64,000 nucleotides of DNA from assembly GCA_009784185.1 (NCBI GenBank), contig WRCD01000001.1:129698-193697 (forward strand), given 5' to 3'. This DNA comes from Bacillota bacterium. Lineage in GTDB: Bacteria; Bacillota; Clostridia; Christensenellales; UBA1242. The stretch's first letter is position 1, and each line of letters opens with the position of its first letter. The notes under the pieces are model-generated. The model was not told the origin of the DNA and made no database searches. It saw nothing but the letters and a program-made list of their open reading frames with translations. This document shows, piece by piece, positions 1,862 to 46,067 of this stretch. Made by a program: the position numbers and the translations under genes.

Positions 1862-1877
1862 ACAGAAGAGGTAAACT

Positions 1878-10800: not shown

Positions 10801-13800
10801 AAAGCGGAATAAGCCATTGCAACACATTATACTTTTGTGTGGACAGGGAGAGTTTGCGCCGGAACATTTACTTGTGTAATTCAGAAGGCAAACGCATAGA
10901 TTTTGCCGGTACCCTCGGCGGCAATGCGCTGCTGGGCAGCCTGGATGGTGACCTTACCGGAAGCTTTGTAATTAATATTCCTGCGTGGGTGCTGTTTGGC
11001 GACTATGAACAAAGCACCGGCCCTGGCAGGTACAAGATTCTTCTTAGCGGCTATAATCCGAATCTGCAGGAATTAGGCGTCTATGGCCCGAGTCCGTTTC
11101 AGTTTATCTACAGAATCAGGCTGGATAGCCCGGTTGTGGAAATAGTTACAAATTTGGGGCCAGGATTGGATTATATTACAGCGCAGCAGGTACATGAGCG
11201 CAGTTTTGAGTTTACGGTTAATGTCAGCAATATGTCACACAATGCAAAAAGCTTTACATTAACGCTGGAGGTTTATAATAATAACAACGGATGGGTGCCT
11301 TTACCAAATGGTGCCACGACAATAGTTGAAATTAAGCGTGGTGAAGAAGACGGCAAGTGCAGTGTAGTGATAAGTAAAGAAAGTTACAGCGGTCTTTTTG
11401 ATCAGCTTATGTTGTACGCGCCCGCTACGTTCAGAGTGGTTGTTCAGGCAAAGGCTGAGGACACCTTGTATACAGACAGCTACCAAAGAACAGAAAGCCA
11501 ACAGATAAACCGCCAGATGGTTGCGCCCACATTTGAGCTGCTGATAGATGATATATTTGAAAGAAGCAACCTGAAATCAGGGGAAATAGATGACAAGAAT
11601 CGGCTTACAAACCTTAACACCAACGGTACTGCGTGCGACCTTTATGTGAAAGACGACAATGAAGGCCGTCAGGGCAGCGAATATGATGCTATAGGGCAAT
11701 ATCAGCTGGTTGGCAGGCTGAACGGAGTTGGAAGCTGGAGTGATATTGGCGACCCCATATTAGGCGGAAACTTTAAAAATCCTGCTGCTAATGAGGGCAC
11801 TTACACTATAGCAGGCCTCGGTTCCATATACCAAATGCTCCGTACCTGGCTGTGGGAGAAACATAGTCAAACAGGAGGAGGAATTGTTGAGCTTGCGCTT
11901 ATAGCTGTACCGGATGCATTATCAGGATGGAAAAACAGCCCTATGCCCGAAGGTGATTTGAATGCAAAAACACAGACAATTGCGTTTTATGTACGCTCTG
12001 GGGTTGTGGATACGGTATCGGTTGATGATTTACGGGCGGACATAGACTATTCCAACACCGGACCAAATATGAAACATACAACATACGACGCGTATATCCC
12101 AACTACTATAAGGCTTAATTGGAATGTCCATGAATCCAACAGTACAAACTACCGCGTTACGGTTGCGCCGTTTAACAGAAAGGACAAGACTCCAAATATG
12201 CCGTGGGGAGAATCCGGTTTTTCCATGCCGCAAGCCGGAGTAAAGACTATTGGCGGCCTTGGCGGTACGGGGCTTCAATCAAACCAAAACATTGCAAGCG
12301 GGTTTAACAATAATTTTAATTATAGCAATTTTGATGTTTATCACGGCGGAGTGGGCTATAATGCAAGCAAAGAGGCGGGCGGAGTTGGCTGGTGGGAGGT
12401 TTATGTTGAAGCAATAAAACCGAATGATGGCGGTGAGTTTATGGGCGCAGGATATCCGAGTGAGGCGTATCAGTTCAGGATTATGCTAAAGCTGCGGTCA
12501 ACCCAAATCGACGACCCAAACAAACAGGGTCTTTCAATCAGTGCCGGTGCAGTAAACGGAGTGGTGCCCGGGCAAAATTATATATTTGACGAAACTAAGA
12601 GAGTGAATATAAATAGTCTTACATCCCCTTCTGTATATTACCTGGTTAAGGCGCATGATCTTCAAACAATTAATCCAGACACAGCCAAAAGAATGGGACC
12701 GCTGTTAAAGGTTGACAGATTCAGAGTAGAAACAAATGTCGGCACAAACGGAAGCATAGGCGTATCTAGCTTGTTTGCCGATGATGTGGAGGGCGGAAGT
12801 TACGGGTATTCTGTAACCGCGCTTGACCCAAGCGGCGGGATAGTGTTTTTTGACTCAAATCCGGTGGCGGTTGCCGCCGGCCATGAATATGCGTACAACC
12901 ATGTTGCCAGAATAAACTATACCAACCGGACCACCGGCGGCGTAATTTATAATTACAACACCGGCGAACAAGCATATGGCAACAACAACGGCATATACAA
13001 CAGCGTTATTGCAGAAGTAAAAACGGTTCTTACAACAACCCCACCCAACAACAGGCTGGATATTACATACAATAATCATCCGTTTGCAACTCATTACGCC
13101 ACATATTATGTTCAGGCAATAGGGGAGACTTCTTCTGCGTGGGTGCGGGCAACACAACTAGAAGGCTCTTCTGCAGCACCTGGTCAATCAACCGCAATTC
13201 CTACGGACCGCCCGGCCAACTTTACGCGAAACTTTAACTTCGCTCCGGCATTTTTTGGAGTAAATGTTGATAAAAACATTAACGACACTAGCGCTAATAT
13301 AGCCAATTATCTGGCAGGTTGGGTGAGCAGCAATACATTTGGAGGGTACTTGCAGCCGGGCGAAGGAATGTTTGTGGTAGTGGCCTGGAACGCTCTAAAG
13401 TCAAACGAAGTTTTTATCGACAAGCGTCATGCAAACTTTATAACCTACAACTACAACTTTGAAGATAAGCAAAATACCAGTACAGGACAAAACACAAGCT
13501 TTACAGTTGGGCACAACGCGTACAGTTCAAGCTCCAGCCACTGTGAGTACATGAGTATGTCCCCCAAAAACTACTGGGTTACACCGGCTAATCTTAGTTT
13601 TGCGCCCTCCAACGCCCTTCCGCAGCTTGAGCCCAAGCTGTATATTGAGGCGGTAAAGTTTAATGTTAGAAACTTTACACAAGCCGACCTTAATGCTCCC
13701 AACCTGCAAACAAAAAGAGGCAACGGCCAGGCAGGCGGTAATGCCGGTAAAATTACGGAGTTTAGTTGGAGAAGTATTCCGGGCGCAATCGGGTACTCAA

Positions 13801-14486
13801 TAGAAATGACCGAGACATCGGGCCTTGGTTATGATATATTTAAGTACAGCACGCCGAACGGTGCCATAAGCAATGTTTTTAATGGTACTACCGGTGACAG
13901 ACTTGTATTGCAAGAAAGTATAAGGTGTATTTTAGGCTCTGAGGCATTAAGCAAACTGACCAGTTTGGCAAAATACCCCAGCAAAGATAAGGCCGACGGC
14001 AAAGACAGTGACACGGCAAGAGTCAGGATAGAATCGCATATCCGTGCCGGCACCGGCCAGTACTTTATAACCGCTGCGGTCGAAGACATTTGGCTTATCG
14101 GTTATCAGAGGCTGTATTTTACAAGGCTTGATTGGTTTAGCCAGAACGGTAACCTTGTTCCCTTTTTTGGATATGACCCGTTGTTTTGGTGCAACTTTTA
14201 TTGGGACCCTGTAATTGTGGGAAATCCTAACATGTCTGCTTGGGTTAGAATAGAGGCCAACATAACGACCGCTCAAAGTTCTGGAAAACTGTACTCAAGA
14301 GAATACAGAGAAACAAGTTCTTATACTTCTGTAAGCGGACTGAATCGTGGTGGTCTTCGCTTGCAGGAGTCTGCCTGGAGTGCGGGAGCTAACATGAGAA
14401 ACATGAAGCTGATATGGAGCCTTATTGACAACTCCGGCATTTACGGCAGTTATACAGGTGAAGAAAAGAAGACCACACACGGTTAA
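1878..14486 (+). CDS. Giant (4202 aa) N-terminally anchored surface protein built of FN3/Ig-like modules
   Basis: Single 12.6-kb ORF with a GAGGT SD about 6 nt upstream of the ATG. The N-terminus has a basic stretch plus a hydrophobic helix (WIYIVSAVAVVLAAAIVTLVITL). Dozens of ~90-110 aa modules follow, each with a W..V..A..Y.(V/L) signature (LIVSWSPVSGASCYELEL, LIITWDAVPGALSYNLVV, VLTWERVPGTRNGYYVML, EFSWRSIPGAIGYSIEM). No LPXTG-type C-terminal signal was seen. Confidence 0.85.
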   Translation: MSYSYGQKSGKKRTWIYIVSAVAVVLAAAIVTLVITLRPGNVPEPEYKLSAPSNLVVVVENGRHLVKFGAVTNAKSYDLLIDESRVTIYGSDLPLVEFDITNWMTDYKQYAISVKARAANSEFDSDYTTNIPHNNTTRLASPQLEVDLTGSVLMWNSVPRADMYKVTIDTVDFLTSRLVFDIAANLPAIAHLGIGSYDMKVAAHNSNSAFVLDSLPSNILKYVINTELSAPANLRIDDMGGSLIVSWSPVSGASCYELELLHGGTSTELGYTNDLAFDITSLVSNPLEYAVRVRAIGAPFVATSPFTEPVVYQKFVTHAAPAGLAAVKEGNQLIITWDAVPGALSYNLVVGTDLGFPFVSGDSISITATRAVVPLSSSDDGIYNIKVRVNAGPAFYNASEFCEPIRVDVNTQLDTPVGLAVGGAAGAEFLTWQHIPYATNGYLVRAYSGGSVVASATVKDNWAALGSLVSVSGEYRLTVQAIGYKFYAASAESASLLYVIKYVLPAPVLFKVEVKEVEAEEETDTSSEEEVINYREYLVWTKVGQPASQIYYSIWFSGLGVSGWVTDIDGKRVNIRQDSESFMRTDPVLGLVEVFIYDITDFLDAGNLPYVFRVKAFPEPGNNVELESVFSNEQAYGPITPFGTPDNVGVDSAFVLTWERVPGTRNGYYVMLNGKLINSDEGTTTHFVNSFNLINHLRPGENTVSVCAAGYGRFLQSPFSAPITVNYTVIKLAAVTDFNVSARIVGGTIRYQANFNSVRHATHYIIVVEDDEGNSIIVKRPVPLGLSLLISIEIPEDLIEKSGTTMFSIVAAYLHEHALPGSEDYTGWIINSNKFEYYYHDLAVLATPVPVISEDAFGRWWVSWGAIDRATGYAFSVSVQNAVSTPISLTLSGGTTAYELTDYFAANGGAKYQIVVRAIGNNLLIANSAAAMLIYDRKLQLATPDISVEVRNGRHEVVWEVVPYATVYNVRVYKDYAINGTSVTVVNQNTSFLGSPDNKVRLDIEPQLSAAFPGIYTVVVTAIGHKQIPDEAIGEYYYQASLEAELLYTYSPPLSSPNFRTVTSGETITVEIIAVQNAVSYEVYASRTGWNAGQLSLAELVESGTSLSYNISGWFYPSSTAFFGSPGEVYFGVRAIASPTIPSGSTVWYQDSLCPSSQIYVHYGKLDMVSNVEIIQLFNHPQSTDDYGIVFVSWQAPANSLDFEIKVTGSAAIDVPSNMITDLGGGRFGAYLNSGYFSKIPQQNSYTIEIRASDNLAAFYLASNWNRHDFTYCLQFETANVSFVGGSKVLEATQSLLEIVFERPNLAARSFAIHVTDRLNNIVLTPITFTPSAGLNPISYSLTNFSEITTKAGVYEVRVEVLGSGVWANSPLSTPVYCIRHEKLAATQDLFIVKVESAAELRFTPVANSETYTLEFFREDWPLETIVITRGECVPSGSRLVYSIPTNLVDVATSYKYTVKLYSNDVTASVTIPSEFTGILPNGYTYLAYLKSDAAETNYEADGALSPPAYLELVVIEGVRYLTWTQVWTQVTYPSSGLPVDSYRLAYVLRDANGIYFMPDGTVVPWEEDTYFDESVGDWVTRYYQRHNDYLLAELSAVLTSANVIVGQNGVYVDDGRVYYPLTDTLTTANLHLTYYYAIALLAEGNNEHGNSDVVLATLLPAPRDAPEIVLADPALSPDFYINKTGGTITLSFKNELSSQLGLYTEDGKPRWENIYSLSINGKEQWAINDDNASFNAVTSIITIDSVWLAEKLRGEYELVKDHHNFNRYFSIKLYAHAVNGVILTEVKEDPAPNYDIPNGSFEQIIYGNAVMYEERIIELNWLAPYLYDEPIIITSVEDDASNNYVINFSGDLRHATGFVIEVCDINGDPNSPATVLTIKIGTPGQSSYSLDFTSVLAGLSPMEYTVRLYVYSDTCKRVYGQRSSSDQPYYKSFRRYALENTVDVFSISGGLSNILSFDAPAGYTINNSFELEIGRNVGGQIKFGEEGRTFTLGGPGGIALSTSGGALTADLTGHLIELEGDYLYARIRMLSRGTYYKDSLWSAYAGFSHQIKLVISGLKVSITPDLPADLTSQEFNVKRLELTGFVRGADMFTIDIKPSSGTEWQSFTYFMYAGAIDVSGVILQPGEYDVRFTALNNGEYYLGGNTETVKIEVWFMHAEPTNVTHTVKYAMGATQAEDEYNPTSVIVNFGNAIINKTYNIRLLDPLSLTELHISGIIYGVGGFEIIDILNQLPPRSYIISVSAPASGYFLESKQVFSSSGSGVYKHQYRMPQAEEAALTHIMEYDAPEPYTGFVRAHGYIYFTHSSQLPGHGLPFDAFNGESYVPVYAGYNVWVRDNKGNSANYNCFVGKNESGFFIKSGADGFTINPLTGEIRFDISVFAYSTGRINNPYISGYYYYTITTLVPGEFTSNMDVRASPPLYQDYSMGGRMFNFLIKYPYRPEELTLMNGETIGKNTWLYWTLAGPEAAAGNVRFVVSINGKEHLINLIGAPTSAPGIYSYSLFSIDGLIMDYLRGGDNRIRVAVEAMPDKHFSRGDWSDEIPVNGYQVVLPAPNVNWGSNNVVSWNNQLNSNWDNIDTVWYEVIVAYDTDSTAEKNGSGYEDIHTWTMPRSPNPEMSFNLYDMLWGTDYLNGLSLKNGAYRLTIKIISSNSAYTPSEAAVWRQFKDPFAMPADVAVVVTVNGSTLLADDKEAYTSNETETKINVSWLRVEMEMSDSTKVYPKKYMIQVFLSVGTNSEIIKGEYEICLDTNDERLTYDSVTNKYTYDIWADFKNQRGGGDYVVYVIAIGESSDLFSSSPRSNKTPAAQFKHYVKLPVPQLPATLSLDFTGEGWSISWNAYEADGVLGYELSVVEINGFALEEHKIRITTTSNRHFASSNNTSGGNFYLDQGAWNTVRLRAIGNPDFYVNSDYSQVVYYNLPKAFPPRDFAVLTNQPGRVEVNETTVRAQTAEVTLTWSFLNQNDAEHYMLLVMDESGISHCNTLYFCVDRESLRRNIYLCNSEGKRIDFAGTLGGNALLGSLDGDLTGSFVINIPAWVLFGDYEQSTGPGRYKILLSGYNPNLQELGVYGPSPFQFIYRIRLDSPVVEIVTNLGPGLDYITAQQVHERSFEFTVNVSNMSHNAKSFTLTLEVYNNNNGWVPLPNGATTIVEIKRGEEDGKCSVVISKESYSGLFDQLMLYAPATFRVVVQAKAEDTLYTDSYQRTESQQINRQMVAPTFELLIDDIFERSNLKSGEIDDKNRLTNLNTNGTACDLYVKDDNEGRQGSEYDAIGQYQLVGRLNGVGSWSDIGDPILGGNFKNPAANEGTYTIAGLGSIYQMLRTWLWEKHSQTGGGIVELALIAVPDALSGWKNSPMPEGDLNAKTQTIAFYVRSGVVDTVSVDDLRADIDYSNTGPNMKHTTYDAYIPTTIRLNWNVHESNSTNYRVTVAPFNRKDKTPNMPWGESGFSMPQAGVKTIGGLGGTGLQSNQNIASGFNNNFNYSNFDVYHGGVGYNASKEAGGVGWWEVYVEAIKPNDGGEFMGAGYPSEAYQFRIMLKLRSTQIDDPNKQGLSISAGAVNGVVPGQNYIFDETKRVNINSLTSPSVYYLVKAHDLQTINPDTAKRMGPLLKVDRFRVETNVGTNGSIGVSSLFADDVEGGSYGYSVTALDPSGGIVFFDSNPVAVAAGHEYAYNHVARINYTNRTTGGVIYNYNTGEQAYGNNNGIYNSVIAEVKTVLTTTPPNNRLDITYNNHPFATHYATYYVQAIGETSSAWVRATQLEGSSAAPGQSTAIPTDRPANFTRNFNFAPAFFGVNVDKNINDTSANIANYLAGWVSSNTFGGYLQPGEGMFVVVAWNALKSNEVFIDKRHANFITYNYNFEDKQNTSTGQNTSFTVGHNAYSSSSSHCEYMSMSPKNYWVTPANLSFAPSNALPQLEPKLYIEAVKFNVRNFTQADLNAPNLQTKRGNGQAGGNAGKITEFSWRSIPGAIGYSIEMTETSGLGYDIFKYSTPNGAISNVFNGTTGDRLVLQESIRCILGSEALSKLTSLAKYPSKDKADGKDSDTARVRIESHIRAGTGQYFITAAVEDIWLIGYQRLYFTRLDWFSQNGNLVPFFGYDPLFWCNFYWDPVIVGNPNMSAWVRIEANITTAQSSGKLYSREYRETSSYTSVSGLNRGGLRLQESAWSAGANMRNMKLIWSLIDNSGIYGSYTGEEKKTTHG

Positions 14487-22060: not shown

Positions 22061-22091
22061 TTGACAAATGCGTAGGGGGGGGGGCTATAAT
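22061..22091 (+). promoter_or_regulatory. Sigma-70-type promoter with a G10 tract in a 19-bp spacer
   Basis: TTGACA (22061-22066), 19 bp containing G10 (22075-22084), then TATAAT (22086-22091). An AAAGGAGA SD and the ATG at 22122 follow. Confidence 0.7.
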
Positions 22092-22121: not shown

Positions 22122-22745
22122 ATGATTAAAGAATTGATTTTTATAATTGACACTTCTAGTGATTCGGGGAGCAGGGCTAGAGAAGTAATGACGGCGGAAA
22201 CGGTTAATGTGGCTATGAGCATGGTCTGTAAAGACTTAGCTGATTTTTCAGGCTCAGTTCATCCGGAGGTGGAGCCGCGGCTTTCTATTTACCACAGTGT
22301 GTGGGATATGGAGCCACTGAGAAGCAAGGTCAACAATTGTCCATGGGCGGCGGCACCTGAGGCTGCCGAGAGAAATAAGTTTAACAAAGCGAAAATTAAT
22401 TTTGTAGGAAATCCAATGCTTGACGGTGCAATATTGGCGCTTGCAGAAAAACTTGAGGAAAAAGCAAACGCAGGCGGTTACGATTCAGGCATATGCGCGC
22501 CCGAAATTTTTGTGCTTGCCGGTGAGGCAGTAAACATGGATATGTTTTTTAGAACTGTTGAAAAGGCTGCGGAAAGAAGCCGCTTGATTAAACACTCAAG
22601 GGTTAGCGCAGTTTATATAGGCAACGATGCAGGTGCTCTGTATAAACAGATAGGCACAGGCACTAAGAAATGGAAAGACAAGTGGGCAGGAAAGGCAACA
22701 GCAATTGAGCCGCAAGGCGGCGCCGGAACCATGGACAAGAAATAA
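22122..22745 (+). CDS. Hypothetical protein, vWA/TerY-like fold with a degenerate MIDAS (tentative)
   Basis: The SD sits 8 nt upstream. LIFIIDTSSDSGS ... PRLSIYHSVWD ... GNPMLDGAILALAEKL ... PEIFVLAGEAVNMD ... VSAVYIGNDAG follows the vWA beta-alpha-beta order, but the metal-binding residues are replaced. Confidence 0.45.
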   Translation: MIKELIFIIDTSSDSGSRAREVMTAETVNVAMSMVCKDLADFSGSVHPEVEPRLSIYHSVWDMEPLRSKVNNCPWAAAPEAAERNKFNKAKINFVGNPMLDGAILALAEKLEEKANAGGYDSGICAPEIFVLAGEAVNMDMFFRTVEKAAERSRLIKHSRVSAVYIGNDAGALYKQIGTGTKKWKDKWAGKATAIEPQGGAGTMDKK

Positions 22746-22797: not shown

Positions 22798-22858
22798 ATT
22801 TTACACATATTTTTTGCATAAAGCATATACATTGTTAAGTTTTGTTACAGGAGTGCAA

Positions 22859-23386
22859 GTGTTGGAGAGTTACAACGACTTTTTGCTGTTAGACAATAAT
22901 ACATATTCTCAAATGGAGCGGGCATATGCGCAGAGCATAGCTCCGCAAAGCGTAGTTCCGCCAATTGTTTCAAAAGTGGTCCCGGTTATTGCCTGGGAGG
23001 CGCTGCGCCTTATTTTTTATGGGCTGAAGCACACGCATTTTAATTTAAATCAGTTAACCAGGTTTGCGGGCCGCGGCACCACCAAAGAAAAGATTTTATT
23101 AAATGTGATTAAAATTGAACGGCAGCTTGCTATGCTCCATAGGTTGTATCACCAAAAAACCGGCACGGAATGCGTGTTTAATTTTATTGCTCCAAAGCAG
23201 GCACCAAATAATTGCACTGCATTACGGGCGGCAATAGATACTCAACTGGACGTGTTTAAAACCATGTTTGAGCTATACAAAAACGAAACAAACGCTGAAT
23301 CTAAAGCTATGCTGGAATCCGGCATAACCGAAGCGCATGAAGTGCTGAAAAATTTAACCAGTATGGTTTGTGCGGTAAGGTATTAA
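22859..23386 (+). CDS. Hypothetical protein (helical, no recognised domain)
   Basis: GTG start with a GGAG SD 6 nt upstream; the ORF-track TTG at 22814 has no SD. No motif was recognised. Confidence 0.5.
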   Translation: MLESYNDFLLLDNNTYSQMERAYAQSIAPQSVVPPIVSKVVPVIAWEALRLIFYGLKHTHFNLNQLTRFAGRGTTKEKILLNVIKIERQLAMLHRLYHQKTGTECVFNFIAPKQAPNNCTALRAAIDTQLDVFKTMFELYKNETNAESKAMLESGITEAHEVLKNLTSMVCAVRY

Positions 23387-23402: not shown

Positions 23403-23528
23403 AAAATTCCCCTCTATAAGAGGGGTGGCAATCACGAAGTGATTGACGGGGTGTGGATAACGAAAAGTCTGTATGACAACCACACCCCGCCTCGCAGGCT
23501 CGGCACCCCTCTTATAGAGGGGAATTTT
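23403..23528. repeat. GGGGAATT-family repeat, complete inverted pair
   Basis: AAAATTCCCCTCTataAGAGGGGT-GCAATCACgaaGTGATTGAC-GGGGTGTGG ... CCACACCCC-GCCTCGcagGCTCGGC-ACCCCTCTtatAGAGGGGAATTTT. Confidence 0.9.
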
Positions 23529-23580: not shown

Positions 23581-23611
23581 TTGACAAGTTCGGGGGGGGG
23601 GGCGCTATAAT
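23581..23611 (+). promoter_or_regulatory. Sigma-70-type promoter with a G11 tract in a 19-bp spacer (duplicate of the 22061 module)
   Basis: TTGACA (23581-23586), 19 bp containing G11 (23592-23602), then TATAAT (23606-23611). About 40 bp upstream and the 5'UTR are near-identical to the 22028-22124 module. Confidence 0.7.
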
Positions 23612-23641: not shown

Positions 23642-24214
23642 ATGAATATAGAACAAAGAGCGGACAGAATTATTGAAACCAGCAATAAGTATGTTGTAAG
23701 GCCTTCTGACCCGGATAGTTTTGGCAAGTTTAGTATCACAGATAAAAAAACCGGAGTTGATATGTCTGCAAAACTGGACAAGGACAGCAAGCGAGAGATA
23801 GTTTATAATGATATGATTAGAAACTTGTGCAGCGTAAAGAAATATTCTACAGATGGAACTCAAGATAGTTATGACAAAATTATGCTAGAAAATATGTTGC
23901 CTAATTTTGACGTATTGGCTGCAATGATTAACAAAGATTTAGGCAATGGCTCAATAGACACACAACCCATATTTAAGTATTTTGACGAGTGTAAATTTAA
24001 ATACACAGATGAATTAATACGAGGAATGTTCACTTCATCAATCTCGTATGGGCCGGAAAGGTTTTTGATTTTTGCAAATTACCATAACAATAATCCGGAC
24101 ATAAAACGAGTTTCAGATGCAAGTTGTAAAGGTCCGTCCGGCATTATACCCAACCCAACCAGAGTGAATTTTAAGGTGGAGAGAGCGCCTGCGGCCAAAG
24201 TTAAACTTCCTTAA
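23642..24214 (+). CDS. Hypothetical protein
   Basis: An AAAGGAGA SD precedes the ATG. 190 aa, no recognised motif. Confidence 0.55.
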   Translation: MNIEQRADRIIETSNKYVVRPSDPDSFGKFSITDKKTGVDMSAKLDKDSKREIVYNDMIRNLCSVKKYSTDGTQDSYDKIMLENMLPNFDVLAAMINKDLGNGSIDTQPIFKYFDECKFKYTDELIRGMFTSSISYGPERFLIFANYHNNNPDIKRVSDASCKGPSGIIPNPTRVNFKVERAPAAKVKLP

Positions 24215-38041: not shown

Positions 38042-40537
38042 TTAAGCCTTAATGTTTGGTTGCTGCGGCAAATTTGGCGGGGCTTCGTTTCTGGTATGCA
38101 TTGGTTTTTTAAATACCAGATACAGGAAGCTGAACTGAACCATTATGATTGTAAACAATATTGCGGGCTGTCCAAGCGGGACGTATCCAAAGAAGTCCTG
38201 CGGTATGCTGAGCAGTGCTATTGTACAGCCCAGTGCCATTGAGCAGAATAATATTCCGCGGAACATATCCAGCGGCCTGCAGATTGCAAGCAGCATTATG
38301 AGGCCGGTAAACGCAACCGCGTAACTGCCCATGGTTTCGTACTGCCACCCGGTGCCAAGATAAATATCAAACAGGAAACAACCGAGGAAGGCTAAGAAGA
38401 ATATTGCTCCGCCGGGCAGGGCATTTTTAAAGATGGTTGCTAAAAACTTTCCTTTAATAGGAACGCTGCTTGGCTGGAGAGCTAAGAAGAAGCTTGGTAT
38501 TCCGATTGCAAAAATTTCTAACAGCATTAAGTGGTTTGGCGCAAACGGAAAGCTTATACCACGGTCGCCCGAGAACTGAGATATAATTACAAAACCTACA
38601 AGCGACATAATAAATATGGTTTTCATTAAGAACAGTGATGATGATTTGGTAATGTTGTTTACAACCCGCCGGCCCTCTGCAACAACGCTAGGTAAGGATT
38701 GAAAGTTGCTGTCCATTAATACCAGGTGGCTGACGTTTCTTGCTGCTTCACTTCCGCTTGCCATGGCTATGCTGCAGTCGGCGTCTTTAAGAGCCAAAAT
38801 GTCGTTTACTCCGTCGCCCGTCATGGCTACCTTGTAGTTGCTTGCTTTAAGCGCGCGCACCAGCACCGCTTTCTGTTCCGGACTGACCCGGCCGAACACA
38901 GTATACTTATCTGCTGCATCAATTACCTGCTGGTCTGAGAGGCCCGCAAGGCTGATATATTTATCGGCATCCGGAACTCCGCACCTCCGGCTTACTTCGC
39001 TTACGGTTATCGGGTTGTCACCAGATATTATTCGCACTTTAACATCGTTGCCCACAAACCACTTAATTGTAGCGGGGGCGTCTTCTCTTATGTGGTCTTG
39101 AATAACAATCAGCGCAACCGGTTTCATGCTGGCCGGCAGTTTTTCGCCCGATATTGCGGCGGCCGAATGCGTAACCAGCAATACTCTTTGCCCCTGTGCA
39201 CTATACTCTTTTACCAGCTTGTTTATTGCAATATCGTCTTCCTTAAGCAAAAAGTCCGGTGCCCCAAATGCGTAGGTGCCTGCTTCCTTAAGAGTTACGG
39301 CGCTGTATTTTCTTTCACTGCTGAACGGTATTTTTTTTGTTGCAGGGTATCTTGTATTTACGCCAAAATGAAGTTCAAGCGCCTGAGAGGTTTGATTTTT
39401 ATTGTCCAGTGCTTTAAGAATGCTTCCAAAAACAGTTTTAAACTTTTCCTCGTTGTAGCTGTTGTTTAATTTTACTACGCTGGTTACCTTCATTGTGCCG
39501 TCTGTTAGCGTACCGGTTTTATCAAGGCAAAGCATATTAACACGTGCCAGCATTTCAATTCCGTACAAGTCCTGAACGTAAGCGCGCTTGTTGGCAAGCT
39601 TAACCGCTCCAACCGCCAGGGCTACGCTGGTAAGTAAGAACATTCCCGCAGGTATCATTCCGATTATTGCGCCTGCGGTTTTAACCACAACGTCGCTGGT
39701 GCTTGGTAAAAAGGTGTAGTTAATGTAAAACATTACCACCCCAAGCGGAATAACCAGTGCGCCAATTACTTTAATAATCAGGCGCAAGCTATACATAAGC
39801 TCGGATTTAGCCTTTGCGTACCGCTTGGCTTTTTCGGCTAACGATACCGAGTAGCACGCACTTGCAACTTTCTCAACTCTTGCCACACAGTTTCCGCTGG
39901 ATACAAAGCTGCCGCCGTATAACATATCGCCCGTCTTTTTCTTAATTGCGTTTGGTTCACCGGTAAGCAGGCTTTCGTTTGCCTCCAGCTCGCCGGACAC
40001 AACCACGCAATCGGCGCTTATCTGATTACCATGTGTAAACAACACTATGTCATCTACAACCAGCTGGTTAACTGCCACAACCGTTTTTACGCCGTTTCTG
40101 ATAACCGTGGCGGTTGGTGCAGTGATTAACGAAATTTTGTCTATCTTGCGCTTTGCTCTAAACTCCTGCACAATACCGATAACCATGTTTGAGCATATTA
40201 TAAGTAAAAAGAACAGATTGGCGGCGGCACCCACCGCAATAAGCGCACCTGCCACAAAAAAACACAGCAGGTTAAAAAACGTGCATACGTTTTGGATTAC
40301 TATGCCAAGATATGTCTTTTTATTTTTGTTTACGGTAACATTTACAAAGCCGCCCAAAGTTCTGGCGGAGACCTGCTCATCGTTCAGCCCTATGCCGGGG
40401 TCAGCACTGATTCGTTCCAGTGCGTCCCAGCTCCAGCCTTTTTTGCGGCGCGCGCGCTTGGCGGCTCCTGCAGCCTTGCTGCTAAGGCGCGGTGCCATAA
40501 CCGGCTTAGCCTCTGCAACTACTTTGTTCTCTTCCAC
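38042..40537 (-). CDS. Cation-translocating P-type ATPase (E1-E2, HAD superfamily)
   Basis: TGEP (LLTGEPNAI), the phosphorylation site CLDKTGTLT, MTGDGVNDILALKDAD and about 10 TM segments. Confidence 0.88.
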   Translation of the reverse strand: MEENKVVAEAKPVMAPRLSSKAAGAAKRARRKKGWSWDALERISADPGIGLNDEQVSARTLGGFVNVTVNKNKKTYLGIVIQNVCTFFNLLCFFVAGALIAVGAAANLFFLLIICSNMVIGIVQEFRAKRKIDKISLITAPTATVIRNGVKTVVAVNQLVVDDIVLFTHGNQISADCVVVSGELEANESLLTGEPNAIKKKTGDMLYGGSFVSSGNCVARVEKVASACYSVSLAEKAKRYAKAKSELMYSLRLIIKVIGALVIPLGVVMFYINYTFLPSTSDVVVKTAGAIIGMIPAGMFLLTSVALAVGAVKLANKRAYVQDLYGIEMLARVNMLCLDKTGTLTDGTMKVTSVVKLNNSYNEEKFKTVFGSILKALDNKNQTSQALELHFGVNTRYPATKKIPFSSERKYSAVTLKEAGTYAFGAPDFLLKEDDIAINKLVKEYSAQGQRVLLVTHSAAAISGEKLPASMKPVALIVIQDHIREDAPATIKWFVGNDVKVRIISGDNPITVSEVSRRCGVPDADKYISLAGLSDQQVIDAADKYTVFGRVSPEQKAVLVRALKASNYKVAMTGDGVNDILALKDADCSIAMASGSEAARNVSHLVLMDSNFQSLPSVVAEGRRVVNNITKSSSLFLMKTIFIMSLVGFVIISQFSGDRGISFPFAPNHLMLLEIFAIGIPSFFLALQPSSVPIKGKFLATIFKNALPGGAIFFLAFLGCFLFDIYLGTGWQYETMGSYAVAFTGLIMLLAICRPLDMFRGILFCSMALGCTIALLSIPQDFFGYVPLGQPAILFTIIMVQFSFLYLVFKKPMHTRNEAPPNLPQQPNIKA

Positions 40538-40714: not shown

Positions 40715-40745
40715 TTGACTTTTTGGCAGGGGGGGGGGGTATACT
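40715..40745 (+). promoter_or_regulatory. Sigma-70-type promoter with a G11 tract in a 19-bp spacer
   Basis: TTGACT (40715-40720), 19 bp containing G11 (40729-40739), then TATACT (40740-40745). The methyltransferase start lies 18-24 nt downstream. Confidence 0.65.
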
Positions 40746-40762
40746 GGTTAGAAGATTGGAGA

Positions 40763-41851
40763 ATGTTTGTGGAAAAACAAAGGAAAGTGGTAACGAAAAT
40801 CAAATATGAAAGTGGCAAGGTTACTCCTCTTGGCACAGAGCCAAATGATGAATGCTATACTGCAATGCAGGATATTGTAAACGAGTTAGCACAATATGGA
40901 CATGATGGCCGGTTTAGGGGCAAGGACATTATATGTCCGTGTGATTGGGATATTTTAGAAGATGAGGAAGTCTACTCACTTCGTGTTGATTTTGACGAAG
41001 ACATCCATGCGCACACTAACGATGTTAAACTAATTAGTTATGAGAAGCAAAATGGTGCGTTACATAATGTCAGAGTTGAGAAAGAGGAAATAGACAAGTT
41101 TTTAAGAGAAAGAACCAGGTGTAACTTTCTACGAACCCTGATTGAGAACGCAAACACATGGGGAATAAAAAGTGTGTCTGTAAGTGGCTATAATCCGGCA
41201 ACAGGAAAAGGTAAAAAGTTTCAGGATGTTGATTATTCACAATATGATATTTGTATCACCAATCCGCCATTTTCGCGGTATGCCGAATTTATTGAAACCT
41301 TAGTAAAAACTGAAATTGACTTCATAATTCTTGCTCCATTCCTAAACAGGGTAAATCCTTGTGTTGGTATTCCATTATTACTAAAACAATGCTACCTTGG
41401 ATACGGAAGAAAATTAAGAATGAATTTTTTCAACCCCACGATTGACAATGAATACAACACAAAACTAGTTGCTTGTGATTGGATAACAACATTCTATGAC
41501 GCACAGGAGGCGGTAGACAAATCAAGATTGTTAAACGGTATCAAGTACGAGGACTATGAAGACGAGTATATGGTAATGGAAAACATGACAATGAAGGATG
41601 GCACTCATCCAATAAGAGTGAACAACTTTAGAGCAATTCCGGACGACTACTATGGATGGATGTTCTGCTCCATAGGAGTGCTTGATATATTGAGCAACGA
41701 AGAATTTGAATGGTACGGCACAGGGTTCAAGGGCTATTTAAATACAAACAGGCACATCAGTCCGTTTGAGCACAGAGCTTCAAATGAAATGGTGTCAAAT
41801 GCAAACACCAAAGGGTTTCACGGTGTAGTGATAAGACGAAGGAGAATATGA
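40763..41851 (+). CDS. N6-adenine DNA methyltransferase, EcoRI-methylase-like family
   Basis: NDECYTAMQDIVNEL...FRGKDIICPCDWD and DICITNPPFSRYAEFIETLVK...DFIILAP. NPPF is motif IV of amino-methyltransferases, and the layout matches my recollection of the PF13651 family. The start is ATG 40763 or GTG 40769 (GGAG at 40758). Confidence 0.65.
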   Translation: MFVEKQRKVVTKIKYESGKVTPLGTEPNDECYTAMQDIVNELAQYGHDGRFRGKDIICPCDWDILEDEEVYSLRVDFDEDIHAHTNDVKLISYEKQNGALHNVRVEKEEIDKFLRERTRCNFLRTLIENANTWGIKSVSVSGYNPATGKGKKFQDVDYSQYDICITNPPFSRYAEFIETLVKTEIDFIILAPFLNRVNPCVGIPLLLKQCYLGYGRKLRMNFFNPTIDNEYNTKLVACDWITTFYDAQEAVDKSRLLNGIKYEDYEDEYMVMENMTMKDGTHPIRVNNFRAIPDDYYGWMFCSIGVLDILSNEEFEWYGTGFKGYLNTNRHISPFEHRASNEMVSNANTKGFHGVVIRRRRI

Positions 41852-42963
41852 AAATGAAGCTAACGGTAAAGGCAATAATTGAAATGCTTGAAAGCGGCAA
41901 ATTGCAAACTGAGCAAACAACGCAAAGGCAATTCATTTATAACTCTATAACTAAAAAATTAGAAGATGGAGAAATTACAAAGGCCGGCAATGTTTTAAAA
42001 TCAATATTGCAGTATAAAATTCAATTGCCTGCACTATATTTTTGGGAGCGAGACGGCAAGTATAATGTTCATGATGGCAAGCAAAGAATTTTAAGCATCC
42101 GTTATTTTGTTAAGCCGACAAGAGAGATTAATGTTATAACAAGAATAAATGGCAGAGAAGCCAGCTATATAAGTCTGTCGGAAGAACAAAGGAAGGAGCT
42201 GCTAGAGTATGAGTTTGATATCGTTGTTGCGGCCGGCGAACAGGAGAAAGAAGAAACAACGTTTGATTTGATAAACACGAACGCTGTGCCACTAACAGAA
42301 TACGAAAGTTTGCGCGGTATGTTTTACGGCACATTTTTATACGAGTTTGAGCAATATATAGAATCCAAATCTAAAGTTGTTGATGCTGTAAAAGGTGTAG
42401 GCAGAGGCGAGCAGGCAAAACTGTTCTTGTATAACTGTTTTGAGTTGTTGGGGGAAAAAGTAGCAGACAGGAAAATTAGGACACTGCTGAGACATGTTAG
42501 AAATTCATCGTTTGATGCAAAGACATACAAGATGGAAGAAACAATAGCAGTGTTTAGTGAAGTGTCAAAAATATTAGGTGTTAGTGACGAGAAGGCACTG
42601 GGCGTTGCTGCCTTTATAGTTGGAAAGGGATACGACAAGGACATGGTCTGTGATTATTTTAGGCGAATAGTACGCAAAAAAAATGACGTAAAAAGCTGGG
42701 ATGTATATGAGCACTTTAGGGTTGCCATAAACAATTTAATAAACAACAATATTGAGTGCGACGGCAAAAGGAAATTTGCATCGGAAGATAAAGATGTTTT
42801 ATATGGAAGGTCGCAAAAATGTGCGGGCTTAAACTGTAAAGAAACAAATTACAAAAAGCTGGAAGTTGACCACATAAAGAAATGGAGTGAAGGTGGCCCA
42901 ACGGTGCTGGACAATGCTAGACTTCTCTGCAAGTCGTGCAATGCAAGTGAAAAATATAATTAA
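41848..42963 (+). CDS. DUF262 (ParB-like NTPase, DGQQR motif) fused to a C-terminal HNH nuclease
   Basis: TTQRQF...LPALYFWERDGKYNVHDGKQRILSIRYF...TFDLINTNAVPLTEYE is the DUF262 pattern. The C-terminus CAGLNC...LEVDHIKKWSEGGPTVLDNARLLCKSCN is a Cys4 HNH. The ATG overlaps the methyltransferase TGA (ATGA). Confidence 0.7.
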   Translation: MKMKLTVKAIIEMLESGKLQTEQTTQRQFIYNSITKKLEDGEITKAGNVLKSILQYKIQLPALYFWERDGKYNVHDGKQRILSIRYFVKPTREINVITRINGREASYISLSEEQRKELLEYEFDIVVAAGEQEKEETTFDLINTNAVPLTEYESLRGMFYGTFLYEFEQYIESKSKVVDAVKGVGRGEQAKLFLYNCFELLGEKVADRKIRTLLRHVRNSSFDAKTYKMEETIAVFSEVSKILGVSDEKALGVAAFIVGKGYDKDMVCDYFRRIVRKKNDVKSWDVYEHFRVAINNLINNNIECDGKRKFASEDKDVLYGRSQKCAGLNCKETNYKKLEVDHIKKWSEGGPTVLDNARLLCKSCNASEKYN

Positions 42964-42964
42964 C

Positions 42965-42993
42965 AAAAAGCAGCTGGTTAATAGCTGCTTTTT
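42965..42993. terminator. Bidirectional hairpin terminator
   Basis: AAAAAGCAGCT-ggttaat-AGCTGCTTTTT, between the stops at 42963 (+) and 42997 (-). Confidence 0.8.
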
Positions 42994-42996
42994 AAT

Positions 42997-45870
42997 TTAC
43001 TGTGCTTCTGCTCGTATTACTTCCACCGGCTGCTTGCGGGCTATCCTTAATATCGGCAATGTTATGGAAATTGCTACACCTGCAACGGTTACGGCGGCCA
43101 TCAGCAATACCTGCCGTACGCTGAATGCAACTATGCTGTACATCTCGGCAATCTGCCCCAGCTGTGACACAAAGAATTCGTTAAGGAAGAAGTAGCCTAG
43201 ATAGCATGAGACACTTGCAAGGATTATCATAATTAGTGCAATAAACGCGCCCTCGGTTATAAATATACCTGCAATATCTTTCTGGCGGGCGCCGAGGCTG
43301 CGTAATATACCAATGTCTTTTTTCCTTGCATTAATAGAGGCCGCTATAAACGAATAGGTCAGCAGAACCGAAAACAGTGTAAATACTATTGCGGACAAAC
43401 TGAATACGCCTACAAACAAACTGAACATATTGTTAAGAAAATAAATTTCCTGTGCGCTGCTGCTCCATATTACAAAACTGAAAATCCTGTCCGGGGCATC
43501 CTGTTCCTGGCTTGGTGTTGTAAACTTGCCGCTGCTGTTTAAAGTGTTTAGCAGCTGCATACGCTCCTGATATGTATCTGCCGGCACCAGGATATTGCCT
43601 ATAGGATAAATAATAAGCCGGTCATAAAAGTTTTGGGTTGCGTAAAAACACGGACCCAAATCGAGGTAGACTGCTACAATTTCATAACCACTGAGCTCTG
43701 CTTGTAAATTAACACCGCCGATATTGCGGTCTACCTTAAAGTTTATGTAGGCTCCGCCGCTGCTTATTCCCAATTCATCCATAATAGCAGCAAAGTCAAC
43801 AGTATTAATATTGCTGCTGTCCACAGTATATAAGGCCTGAAGCTCGCTTGGCAATAAATCAAGAAGCAACCTTACATCCACCACTACTTGTTTCTTGTTG
43901 TAGCCGGGTTCGTTCGGGTTATATGGGGCAAGGTCTGCCTCGGTAAATCCGTTTATAGGAATTGTATTTGTATACCAATACGGATATAGTCCGTCCGACC
44001 TGAAAAAGCTATCCATAGCGGTGTGGTTGGGTGCGTGAGTTACTGTTTGCCCTGTGGTTGAACTCTGGCCGGGCAAGGTGAGGGATAATTCAATTCCGGT
44101 TTGCAGATACAGCTTGCTGCTGTGCCTCATTAAATTGTGATAATAACCGGGCAGTGCATAATAATTGTTGAGGTATGTACTCCATGCGTTTGCTGCCTGC
44201 GGCCATACAGCTTTTTGTTCAGATGTGGCGGGAGTGGTCTGGCGCACAGTAGGCATCAGGAGCGCATATGGGCTAAGGTCAAAATCTATCATGCCCACAA
44301 TACGCATTGTACGCCACCGGGTGTGGTCATCGTTAGAGTTTGGAAACTGATGTTCGGCCCAGGAAGTGCCGCCTCTGTCATAGCCTTCCCAAATGGCGCG
44401 TTCATAAATTTGTGAAAACTCGGTCAGTTTTGTAACGCTTCCCGGCGTGCCTGCCGGCGTAACTACTCCATATAGTCTTTCTATGCTGGTTGTTCCGTCT
44501 ATAATCAGTTCAATGCCGTATCGCAGATACCGCTCAAACATAAAGTTGGTTATAACAACCTCATTAAAGTTAGCCGGCCATCTGCCTGCGGATAGTGTTA
44601 GCCCCAGGGCTTCGGGAGAGTCGGTTTCAACAACGCCCTGCACAACGGTGCCCAAAAAATTGTAATACGGAATTAATGTGGGCTGAAAAACATGGTTGGG
44701 GTTGGCGCCGTTAAACGGCAGCTGATATTTTACCGCGTGCGGCAGATTAAGTTTTTTAAATTCGTCAAGATGCTCCGGCTCAATTATGCGGCGCTCCTGG
44801 CTTGGCACGAATCCTTCTTCCTTGGTTTCCATCATTGCAAGCGGCACAAACGGCAGGCCCGACCGCTCAATTTCCTGCTGCATTACATTGTTTACATTAA
44901 ATTGAGCCACCATGTCGGCAAAACCGAAAAACGCAATTGCAAACATAGACAGGCATATTGTAAACAGCACCCGCACCCATTTAGCGCGCATGCTCATCAG
45001 CGACAGTTTAAACGAAGACTTAAACGGCAGTTTTACTTTTGTGTCCAGGTTGATTGGGGCAGCGGCTGCCGGCCTAAGGGCTGCAGGTTTTGGCTTTGTG
45101 TTTTTAACCAGAACAACTTTTTTACCGGCGTTAAGAAGTTTGTCCAACTCTTTTTTATTAACCTTGTCAACGGATAATTTAACGGTTTCGTTTGTGCCGT
45201 CACCGTGATAGGCGGCTGATATTTTTCCGTCAGACAGTTCAATAATCCGGTCTGCATAAGTATGAGCAGAATCCAGGTCGTGACTGATAACTATAACCAG
45301 ATTTGTTTTTGATAACTGCTGTAAAAGATTGAATATTTCTTTGCTGGTTACACTGTCCAGGTTTCCGGTGGGCTCATCCGCTAAGATTATTTTAGGGTTT
45401 TTAATTAGCGCACGTGCAATTGCAACACGCTGCTTCTGTCCGCCCGATACACCTCTGGCGTAGCGGTTTTCAAAGCCGGCCAGCCCAACCTTATCTAATG
45501 CTGCCGCAATCTGTGCTGCTGCGGCCTCCTGCTGCCCGATTTCAAGTGCAAGGCTCAGGTTCTGCCCGATAGTGTATTTCTCAATTATATGAAATTCCTG
45601 AAACACAAAGCCGATATTCAAAGCGCGGTATGCGTCACGCTCATTAGCGGAAAAATCTTTGGTTGACTTACCATTGACCTTAAGCTCTCCGCTGTCGTAG
45701 CTATCCAACAGACCAAGCATGTTTAATAAGGTAGACTTTCCGCTGCCGGATTTGCCCACAATAAAAACTAAGCCGGTTTCAGGCAAACTAAAACTAACAC
45801 CCTTAAGCGCGTCAACGTTGCGCCCGGTTTTACTAACGTATGATTTATGTAAATTGATAAACTCAATCAT
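42997..45870 (-). CDS. MacB-like ABC transporter, fused ATPase + FtsX-type permease with a large extracytoplasmic domain
   Basis: N-terminal NBD (GKSGSGKST, VSGGQKQR, ILADEPT). C-terminal FtsX region (RKKDIGILRSLGARQKDI plus TM helices). Confidence 0.85.
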   Translation of the reverse strand: MIEFINLHKSYVSKTGRNVDALKGVSFSLPETGLVFIVGKSGSGKSTLLNMLGLLDSYDSGELKVNGKSTKDFSANERDAYRALNIGFVFQEFHIIEKYTIGQNLSLALEIGQQEAAAAQIAAALDKVGLAGFENRYARGVSGGQKQRVAIARALIKNPKIILADEPTGNLDSVTSKEIFNLLQQLSKTNLVIVISHDLDSAHTYADRIIELSDGKISAAYHGDGTNETVKLSVDKVNKKELDKLLNAGKKVVLVKNTKPKPAALRPAAAAPINLDTKVKLPFKSSFKLSLMSMRAKWVRVLFTICLSMFAIAFFGFADMVAQFNVNNVMQQEIERSGLPFVPLAMMETKEEGFVPSQERRIIEPEHLDEFKKLNLPHAVKYQLPFNGANPNHVFQPTLIPYYNFLGTVVQGVVETDSPEALGLTLSAGRWPANFNEVVITNFMFERYLRYGIELIIDGTTSIERLYGVVTPAGTPGSVTKLTEFSQIYERAIWEGYDRGGTSWAEHQFPNSNDDHTRWRTMRIVGMIDFDLSPYALLMPTVRQTTPATSEQKAVWPQAANAWSTYLNNYYALPGYYHNLMRHSSKLYLQTGIELSLTLPGQSSTTGQTVTHAPNHTAMDSFFRSDGLYPYWYTNTIPINGFTEADLAPYNPNEPGYNKKQVVVDVRLLLDLLPSELQALYTVDSSNINTVDFAAIMDELGISSGGAYINFKVDRNIGGVNLQAELSGYEIVAVYLDLGPCFYATQNFYDRLIIYPIGNILVPADTYQERMQLLNTLNSSGKFTTPSQEQDAPDRIFSFVIWSSSAQEIYFLNNMFSLFVGVFSLSAIVFTLFSVLLTYSFIAASINARKKDIGILRSLGARQKDIAGIFITEGAFIALIMIILASVSCYLGYFFLNEFFVSQLGQIAEMYSIVAFSVRQVLLMAAVTVAGVAISITLPILRIARKQPVEVIRAEAQ

Positions 45871-45980: not shown

Positions 45981-46067
45981 GGAGAGGTACCGAAGCGGTC
46001 ATAACGGGGCGGTCTTGAAAACCGTTAGACGTAAGTCACGGGGGTTCGAATCCCTCCCTCTCCGCCA
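45981..46067 (+). tRNA. tRNA-Ser (anticodon UGA), CCA-encoded
   Basis: Acceptor stem GGAGAGG/CCTCTCC and anticodon loop CTTGAAA (TGA at 46016-46018). It has a long variable arm, a T-loop GGTTCGAATCC and a 3' GCCA. TTGCAA/TATAAT lie upstream. Confidence 0.9.

Follow-up and report, generated by a model that had tools for sequence, protein, structure and literature searches.

An EcoRI-family methylase paired with a DUF262-HNH nuclease behind a poly-G promoter: a probable restriction-modification cassette of an uncultured gut Bacillota bacterium

The partner of the EcoRI methylase (M.EcoRI) is a PD-(D/E)XK endonuclease. GmrSD and BrxU are characterised DUF262 nucleases that depend on modification, and the nucleases of GmrSD, BrxU and SspE are stimulated by nucleotides (PMC4619093, PMC12707154). 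An arrangement of ParB-DUF262 and ParBDB domains has been described for NsnA, GmrSD and SspE (PMC12065111), and a 2025 survey of ParB-DUF262 systems names only GmrSD, PD-T4-2, Dazbog, SspE and Menshen. Here we describe two adjoining genes in a 64,000-nucleotide stretch of contig WRCD01000001.1 (positions 129,698 to 193,697; assembly GCA_009784185.1) from an uncultured gut Bacillota bacterium; this whole stretch is called the window below. One gene encodes an EcoRI-family methylase and the other a DUF262-HNH protein, referred to as the nuclease. We consider it probable that the pair is a horizontally acquired two-gene restriction-modification cassette, in which methylation protects the host DNA and both genes share a promoter with a slippage-prone poly-G tract.

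Database searches gave at least 262 nuclease and at least 510 methylase homologues among the matches listed, and the source contigs of the two proteins coincided in length in many cases. As shown in species-representative genomes, the methylase gene was located directly upstream of the nuclease gene in 12 of 12 full-length nuclease relatives, which belonged to Clostridia, Bacilli, Ca. Fimenecus, Mycoplasmatales/Ureaplasma and Parabacteroides distasonis. It likewise adjoined the nuclease gene in the closest relatives (L049, L053-L056 and L061). The order methylase then nuclease was found in loci L001-L015, L049, L053-L056, L061-L066, L078, L080, L081 and L086, and the order nuclease then methylase in a subclade of 14 loci (L070-L077, L079, L082, L084 and L123-L125), three of which lay on phage-like contigs classed as viral in IMG/VR. 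All told, the methylase gene adjoined the nuclease gene in about 50 of about 50 informative loci from at least five phyla, plasmids and phage-like contigs, usually abutting or overlapping it. No full-length nuclease with adequate flanks was found without an adjacent methylase gene among these related loci. The fact that the linkage is kept despite the swap in gene order is good evidence for a functional pair. A preliminary description of the window, made from its sequence alone, had proposed a linked methylase-nuclease module with intact catalytic motifs, and the conserved adjacency together with the invariant residues of the homologue alignments bears this out. It had also regarded the pairing as atypical and possibly novel, which the survey of co-occurrence contradicts. 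Its premise that DUF262 nucleases normally lack a cognate modification module has a known exception in SspABCD-SspE (PMC12707154, PMC12065111).

The broader DUF262-HNH family had at least 8,000 database matches, and a profile of the window clade collected 49, 599 and 9,781 cluster representatives at E <= 1e-30, 1e-10 and 1e-3, respectively. Full-length cassettes of about 25% identity were found on Enterococcus faecium megaplasmids and on plasmids of E. dispar and Rhodococcus antarcticus, as well as on a Moraniibacteriota chromosome and a mobilisable-plasmid-like contig; the plasmid copies differ from the window proteins in their central, probably specificity-determining regions. On the E. dispar plasmid pK205-4b-C (L051, positions 61-4699) optrA, an oxazolidinone/phenicol resistance gene, is located between the methylase and DUF262-HNH genes. 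Distant members from the E. dispar, E. faecium and Rhodococcus plasmids matched the PADLOC profiles REase_II PDLC03418 (E = 1e-84 to 1e-114) and MTase_II PDLC03297 (E = 1e-81 to 1e-93) over their full length. In this PADLOC Type II family, an EcoRI-family methylase is combined with a nuclease of about 360-390 amino acids that consists of a DUF262, a helical and an HNH domain. The window has the same two-gene cassette with the same domain order and matches both profiles over nearly full length, but its clade is divergent (nuclease, E = 5e-11 and 40 bits; methylase, E = 1e-15 and 56 bits). The cassette is thus widespread, and profiles already place it in Type II restriction-modification; the seeds of these profiles may be characterised enzymes or database predictions (the PADLOC papers are silent on profile construction). 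The pairing is therefore neither atypical nor new. The window system is a divergent restriction-modification member that fits known logic and no new kind of system. In the literature on DUF262 nucleases and PF13651, we found no paper describing or characterising the cassette. No named prototype enzyme was found either, hundreds of homologues being named only 'HNH endonuclease' or 'DUF262 domain-containing protein', and the whole cassette family appears to be biochemically uncharacterised.

Two loci depart from the common pattern. The methylase of L046 (4001-5237; 324 amino acids, 72% identical) had no nuclease partner and looks like an orphan derived from the cassette; it is followed by a 98-amino-acid open reading frame (ORF) with faint helix-turn-helix similarity. 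In L007, a 1.0-Mb contig of a long-read Bacilli metagenome-assembled genome (MAG), an insertion sequence (IS) element splits the methylase gene directly after the NPPF motif and the nuclease ORF is intact. The transposase gene of this element (2332-3363) encodes 343 amino acids and is DDE/integrase-like by eye.

The methylase matched Pfam PF13651 (EcoRI_methylase) with E = 1e-19 and 71.5 bits (cut-off 26.4). The alignment was full-length, residues 27-359 corresponding to profile positions 9-344 of 345, and so the EcoRI-methylase-like assignment, first made from motifs, held in the profile test. The NCBI entry of the protein, MCL2539924.1, is named 'adenine-specific methyltransferase EcoRI family protein'. 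Residues D27, E28, T31 and D59 and the motif TNPPFS (164-169) were invariant in an alignment of 17 homologues that included the copies of about 25% identity. Because of the full-length profile match and the invariant catalytic residues, the protein looks like a functional N6-adenine DNA methyltransferase with an intact catalytic motif. It resembles M.EcoRI in its PF13651 match and in having kept both the N-terminal DE.YT and the TNPPFS catalytic motif, whereas its partner is a DUF262-HNH protein in place of a PD-(D/E)XK endonuclease. The 71-bit score indicates a distant subfamily as judged from the profile, and with a score of only this height the target of the window methylase need not be GAATTC.

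The nuclease matched the HNH profile PF01844 at E = 3e-10, which agrees with the HNH nuclease first read from its motifs. In the homologue alignment, C323, C328, D339-H340, N354, C359 and N363 of this domain were invariant, and the active site is intact. The zinc finger had been described as Cys4; the zinc ligands C323, C328 and C359 are indeed invariant, but position 362 is Cys in the window protein and its closest relative only and His in most homologues. The DUF262 domain, proposed earlier from the DGKQR motif, was matched by PF03235 (GmrSD_N/DUF262) with 22.5 bits, below the cut-off of 33.2. The assignment is nevertheless supported by several other lines. The best profile match of the N-terminal 160 residues was the DUF262 protein NsnA of PADLOC (E = 5e-11), precomputed PF03235 matches were present on many homologues, and distant full-length relatives exceeded the Pfam GmrSD_N cut-off (70-75 bits) as well as the HNH cut-off. 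Q24-R25, D74-G-K-Q-R78, E133, E134, F137, I140, N141 and N143 were invariant among homologues, giving the conserved motifs QR, DGKQR and EE..F..IN.N. An AlphaFold model built on 23 sequences, with a predicted local distance difference test score (pLDDT) of 90, had a ParB-like N-terminal fold and seven predicted helices between residues 160 and 298.

For the N-terminal and helical parts of this model, Foldseek retrieved ParB/Noc CTP-binding proteins (probability 0.96-0.98, E ~2e-3), and the alignments reached through their helix-turn-helix DNA-binding region. For the C-terminus, it retrieved HNH domains, those of ScoMcrA and EcoKMcrA, together with the Gme HNH nickase 4h9d; all these matches were at the level of domains, with E > 0.001. 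Neither single-sequence nor profile searches found a significant sequence relative of the methylase or the nuclease in the PDB. According to the model, the helical middle domain is probably a DNA-binding or recognition domain comparable to ParBDB, a concept taken from PMC12065111. The invariant nucleotide-binding motifs of the DUF262 domain suggest that the nuclease is nucleotide-gated, and because of them the enzyme may depend on nucleotides, unlike textbook Type II enzymes, for whose sequence-specific cleavage Mg2+ is enough and which cognate methylation blocks.

The window nuclease resembles GmrSD, BrxU and SspE in its layout: a predicted ParB/DUF262 domain carrying QR and DG(Q/K)QR motifs at the N-terminus, helices in the middle and a nuclease of the His-Me-finger type at the C-terminus. 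It differs from them in being shorter and in ending in a zinc-finger HNH domain instead of DUF1524: no DUF1524 match was found in the window nuclease, and its C-terminus, like that of its relatives, is of the PF01844 type. Another difference is the methylase that stands beside the window-type nuclease in every informative locus. Since this cognate methylase is always adjacent, modification probably inhibits the nuclease instead of being required for its action. In NsnA of the Menshen system, too, a helical DNA-binding domain comes after a ParB-like domain (PMC12065111). NsnA, however, lacks a nuclease domain and acts together with the ATPase NsnB and the effector NsnC, both of which are missing beside the window pair; the similarity of the window nuclease to NsnA is confined to the DUF262 domain. 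With Type II restriction-modification systems the pair shares separate adjacent genes, an intact N6-adenine motif and an intact nuclease site. Membership of MADS, BREX or phosphorothioate systems was considered and rejected, as the profile matches were negligible (E = 0.005-0.08) and far below the curated cut-offs.

Homopolymers in promoter spacers are known to act as switches in Neisseria porA and opc, and in such switches a G or C run between -35 and -10 sets the length of the spacer. The promoter of the window cassette likewise has a G run between its hexamers. As proposed in the preliminary description, the two genes share one promoter with a poly-G tract: a run of 11 G is placed precisely between TTGACT and TATACT and forms a plausible slipped-strand switch. 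About 0.014 G/C tracts of at least 11 nucleotides are expected by chance in the window and two were found. G/C runs of at least 10 occurred three times, all of them inside -35/-10 spacers, each spacer being 19 bp long, and the motif ATTGAC was common to all three promoters. The cassette promoter was absent from the list of our promoter scan because the scan accepts only spacers of 16-18 bp. Judging from the three tracts in 64 kb, poly-G promoter spacers seem to serve this organism as a general switch. The other two promoters lie in cassettes of about 90 bp that are nearly the same in sequence, AAAACTTTTTT.AAAAACTTTTGATTTT.GTATTGACA..., and the ORFs behind them (22122-22745, then 22814-23386, and 23642-24214) had no Pfam or PHROG match. 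Between these two poly-G-controlled gene sets, at 23403-23528, lie the inverted hairpin-forming repeats AAAATTCCCCTCTATAAGAGGGG and CCCCTCTTATAGAGGGGAATTTT, which enclose about 80 bp holding a further inverted repeat, GGGGTGTGG...CCACACCCC. Candidate roles for these repeats are a pair of terminators, a short mobile element and an invertible segment.

The G tract of the cassette is located upstream of both candidate methylase starts, and no homologue has an N-terminal extension that would cover it. As the tract is outside the coding region, any effect would be on the transcription of both genes; the promoter scan found no strong internal promoter on the + strand ahead of the nuclease gene. Translational phase variation by way of a TTG-start ORF at 40715 was rejected, since the homologues begin with MEKQ or MAKQ, corresponding to the GTG at 40769. 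An origin of the poly-G tracts as two-colour sequencing artefacts was rejected as well, because all of them lie within a 279-kb contig and have promoter hexamers on both sides. Phase-variable restriction-modification systems are well documented (PMC6789123, PMC6321876). The preliminary description had likened the switch to a phasevarion, in which the state of methylation would control a set of genes. In classical phasevarions, Type III mod or Type I hsdS genes vary by repeats or inversions inside the coding region, whereas the window cassette would switch a whole Type II-like operon at its promoter in an uncultured gut Bacillota bacterium, as predicted from sequence. On these grounds we regard phase variation of the window cassette as likely.

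Repeats were also found near related cassettes. In three Mycoplasmatales MAGs (L010, 2769-2788; L011, 2749-2768; L012, 2751-2768), the sequence GCGCTC(GA)9-10GTAA is located 83-97 nucleotides upstream of the methylase gene. L011 and L012 have (GA)10 and (GA)9, respectively, in otherwise identical upstream regions, and the cassette lies about 100 nucleotides downstream of a transfer-messenger RNA (tmRNA) gene. This was the only repeat polymorphism seen, and it belongs to the Mycoplasmatales cassette and not to the window locus. In two metagenome contigs (L080, 677-684; L081, 1949-1956), a G8 tract occupies methylase codons 19-21, within codons for S-G-G-G; the Parabacteroides distasonis homologue L014 has no G tract at this position.

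The pair also looks horizontally acquired, because its GC content is lower than that of the flanks (0.35-0.40 against 0.42-0.51), because its relatives occupy unrelated neighbourhoods and because copies exist on plasmids, beside a tmRNA gene and on phage-like contigs. The inserted island assumed in the preliminary description is supported by the same evidence. No direct repeats flanking the pair and no integrase at the locus were found as signs of insertion, and no Rfam element was found between 38000 and 46000. The only tRNA gene nearby is that of tRNA-Ser at 45981-46067, 3 kb away.

In the mechanism that we propose, the EcoRI-family methylase would mark a specific sequence in the host DNA with N6-methyladenine (m6A), and the nuclease would act as the restriction subunit, most likely cutting DNA without this mark. 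Its HNH site would probably be controlled by the DUF262 domain through the binding or hydrolysis of a nucleotide, as is the case in GmrSD, BrxU and SspE. Slippage of the G tract in replication would change the spacer length and hence the promoter strength of both genes together, resulting in subpopulations with and without restriction and methylation; the present 19-bp spacer may be a weak or off state. The sequences themselves show which genes and motifs are present, that the pairing is conserved, and that the G tract is non-random and where it lies; protection of host DNA by methylation, nucleotide dependence of the nuclease and actual switching are inferred. The classical restriction-modification reading fits best because the cassette is compact, self-sufficient and mobile, because orphan methylases occur and no unpaired nuclease was seen, and because a nuclease that required modification would be suicidal if coupled to a methylase of its own. 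This last point bears directly on the idea that the nuclease belongs, like GmrSD and BrxU, to the modification-dependent Type IV enzymes, its methylase being functionally unrelated or having another role. The known behaviour of those two enzymes and the UniRef name of one relative, 'GmrSD restriction endonuclease...', are in its favour. However, such a nuclease would attack the product of its own obligate partner, which is adjacent across phyla and in both orders, and DUF1524, the defining domain of GmrSD, is absent from the window protein and its relatives; we consider this explanation very improbable.

Licensing of the Ssp kind deserves more weight, although we still think it distinctly unlikely. 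Here the DUF262 domain would detect the m6A of the host itself, in the way that SspE senses phosphorothioate, and so activate or position the nuclease against incoming DNA, and the nuclease would be inert without the methylase. SspE offers a precedent, as this DUF262 nuclease depends on modification of the host DNA (PMC12707154, PMC12065111, PMC9646914), and the invariant DUF262 motifs imply an active sensor or NTPase. The intact nuclease ORF behind the split methylase of L007 would fit as well, but polarity of the IS insertion accounts for it equally well. The window nuclease, moreover, ends in a zinc-finger HNH domain and not in the DUF1524 of SspE, and a compact mobile cassette with either gene order and orphan methylases is the classical restriction-modification pattern. 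A further explanation accepts the pair as real and takes the G tract as a fixed promoter feature or an assembly homopolymer error, with expression constitutive or permanently weak; this we hold to be unlikely, if less so than licensing. Homopolymer lengths in metagenome assemblies are error-prone, and the 19-bp spacer shared by all three poly-G promoters could be the working geometry in this organism. On the other side, runs of 10-11 G are to our knowledge hypermutable in every system studied. Such hypermutability is reported in PMC6321876 and PMC9187656. Three tracts placed precisely between good -35 and -10 hexamers, against 0.014 expected, point to selection for a tunable element, and related cassettes carry other repeats, including the one-unit polymorphism.

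Several results count against a switched, methylation-protected restriction-modification cassette. Exact-protein look-ups with both proteins, from either start where tried, found no second assembly and no length variant of the G tract, and a gapped DNA pattern scan of a metagenome collection found no further copy of the window locus; the absence of length variants in these searches is also what a fixed tract would give. The closest relatives with 60-76% identity (L001-L008, L053, L054, L056 and L061) have no poly-G, which indicates that the tract arose in this host lineage and is confined to it; L049 and L055, whose upstream sequence is absent, stand outside this comparison. The G8 tracts of L080 and L081 are weak evidence, since the related loci scanned add up to roughly 300 kb and chance alone should, by our own estimate, yield about one G8 in this much DNA. 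The intact nuclease gene of L007 is awkward for a nuclease that is lethal to unmethylated hosts, though it may be silenced by polarity of the IS insertion. An off-to-on switch of the whole Type II-like operon would expose an unmethylated chromosome to the nuclease, which would be costly. A literature search found no biochemical or methylome data for any member of the cassette family.

With these points weighed, we put forward only tentatively that the family is a new restriction-modification class, in which a ParB/DUF262 NTPase-HNH protein is blocked and not triggered by the m6A of its partner, the reverse of every characterised DUF262 nuclease. Such a class would be very widespread and, in the window, would be switched as a unit by the promoter poly-G, one of several such promoters. 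If this is true, nucleotide-gated DUF262/ParB nucleases would not only be modification-dependent Type IV enzymes but also the restriction subunits of a very common cassette. The family may combine the DUF262 nucleotide switch with classical methylation-blocked restriction. It would make a useful target for enzymology and a possible source of new HNH restriction or nicking enzymes. Poly-G switching, if true, would extend repeat-based phase variation, including that of DNA methylation, to a group in which it is little documented.

The coordinates are collected in the table. The two genes, their motifs, the G tract and the terminator are all present in the sequence as first described, apart from small corrections. 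One of these concerns the gene starts. The annotated NCBI starts are the GTG at 40769 and the ATG at 41854, with products of 360 and 369 amino acids. The methylase GTG is preceded at a distance of 7 nucleotides by the ribosome-binding site GGAG (40758-40761), and the nuclease ATG at a distance of 9 nucleotides by GGAG (41841-44). The homologue N-termini, MEKQ... for the methylase and MK(K/L)TV... for the nuclease, agree with them. Alternative starts exist at ATG 40763, which would give a methylase of 362 amino acids, and at ATG 41848, which overlaps the methylase stop codon as ATGA (41848-41851). The preliminary description had let the nuclease begin in this overlap. The overlap is real, but the ribosome-binding sites and homologue alignments favour GTG 40769 and ATG 41854, the latter 2 nucleotides past the methylase stop codon.

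Table. Features of the cassette locus and of the other poly-G promoters, in positions of the window.
Feature	Position	Strand	Basis or content
Putative -35 hexamer TTGACT	40715..40720	+	Read from sequence; 5/6 against TTGACA
Poly-G tract, 11 G; 3' part of the 19-bp spacer (40721-40739)	40729..40739	+	Sequence; chance estimate
Putative -10 hexamer TATACT, abutting the G tract	40740..40745	+	Read from sequence
ORF 1 (maximal frame)	40763-41851	+	Holds NDECYT, ICPCDWD, ICITNPPFS, DFIILAP
ORF 2 (maximal frame)	41848-42963	+	Holds DGKQR, LEVDHI...N...CKSCN
Methylase gene; predicted EcoRI-family N6-adenine DNA methyltransferase, 360 amino acids	40769..41851	+	PF13651; PADLOC MTase_II; NCBI name
Nuclease, N-terminal ParB/DUF262 domain (about residues 1-170)	41854..42363	+	NsnA profile; motifs; Foldseek
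Nuclease, predicted all-helical middle domain (about residues 171-300)	42364..42753	+	AlphaFold; Foldseek
Nuclease, C-terminal zinc-finger HNH domain (about residues 301-369) and stop codon	42754..42963	+	PF01844; motifs; Foldseek
Hairpin, 12-bp stem, A run and T run at its sides	42965..42993	.	Terminator score on both strands
Putative poly-G promoter TTGACA-N19-TATAAT, 10 G at 22075-22084	22062-22091		Small ORFs downstream
Putative poly-G promoter TTGACA-N19-TATAAT, 11 G at 23592-23602	23581-23611		Small ORF downstream

The pair comprises the only two genes between two transporter genes on the opposite strand, a P-type ATPase gene (38042-40537) and an ABC ATPase-FtsX fusion gene (42997-45870). 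From its sequence, the hairpin behind the nuclease gene would serve as a bidirectional intrinsic terminator between this gene and the convergent ABC-transporter gene. Unrelated transporter flanks and a bidirectional terminator had both been noted before and were found again here.

The best-scoring promoter-like site of the region is antisense in the nuclease gene, at 42568-42541 (-), and consists of TTGACA, 16 nucleotides and a TG-extended TATTGT (10/12). It may be due to chance, as the scan counted 10 promoter-like sites where 6.7 were expected. Some restriction-modification systems, EcoRI among them, are regulated by antisense RNAs (PMC3141266). Elsewhere in the window, a single ORF of 4,202 amino acids occupies positions 1878-14486 on the + strand.

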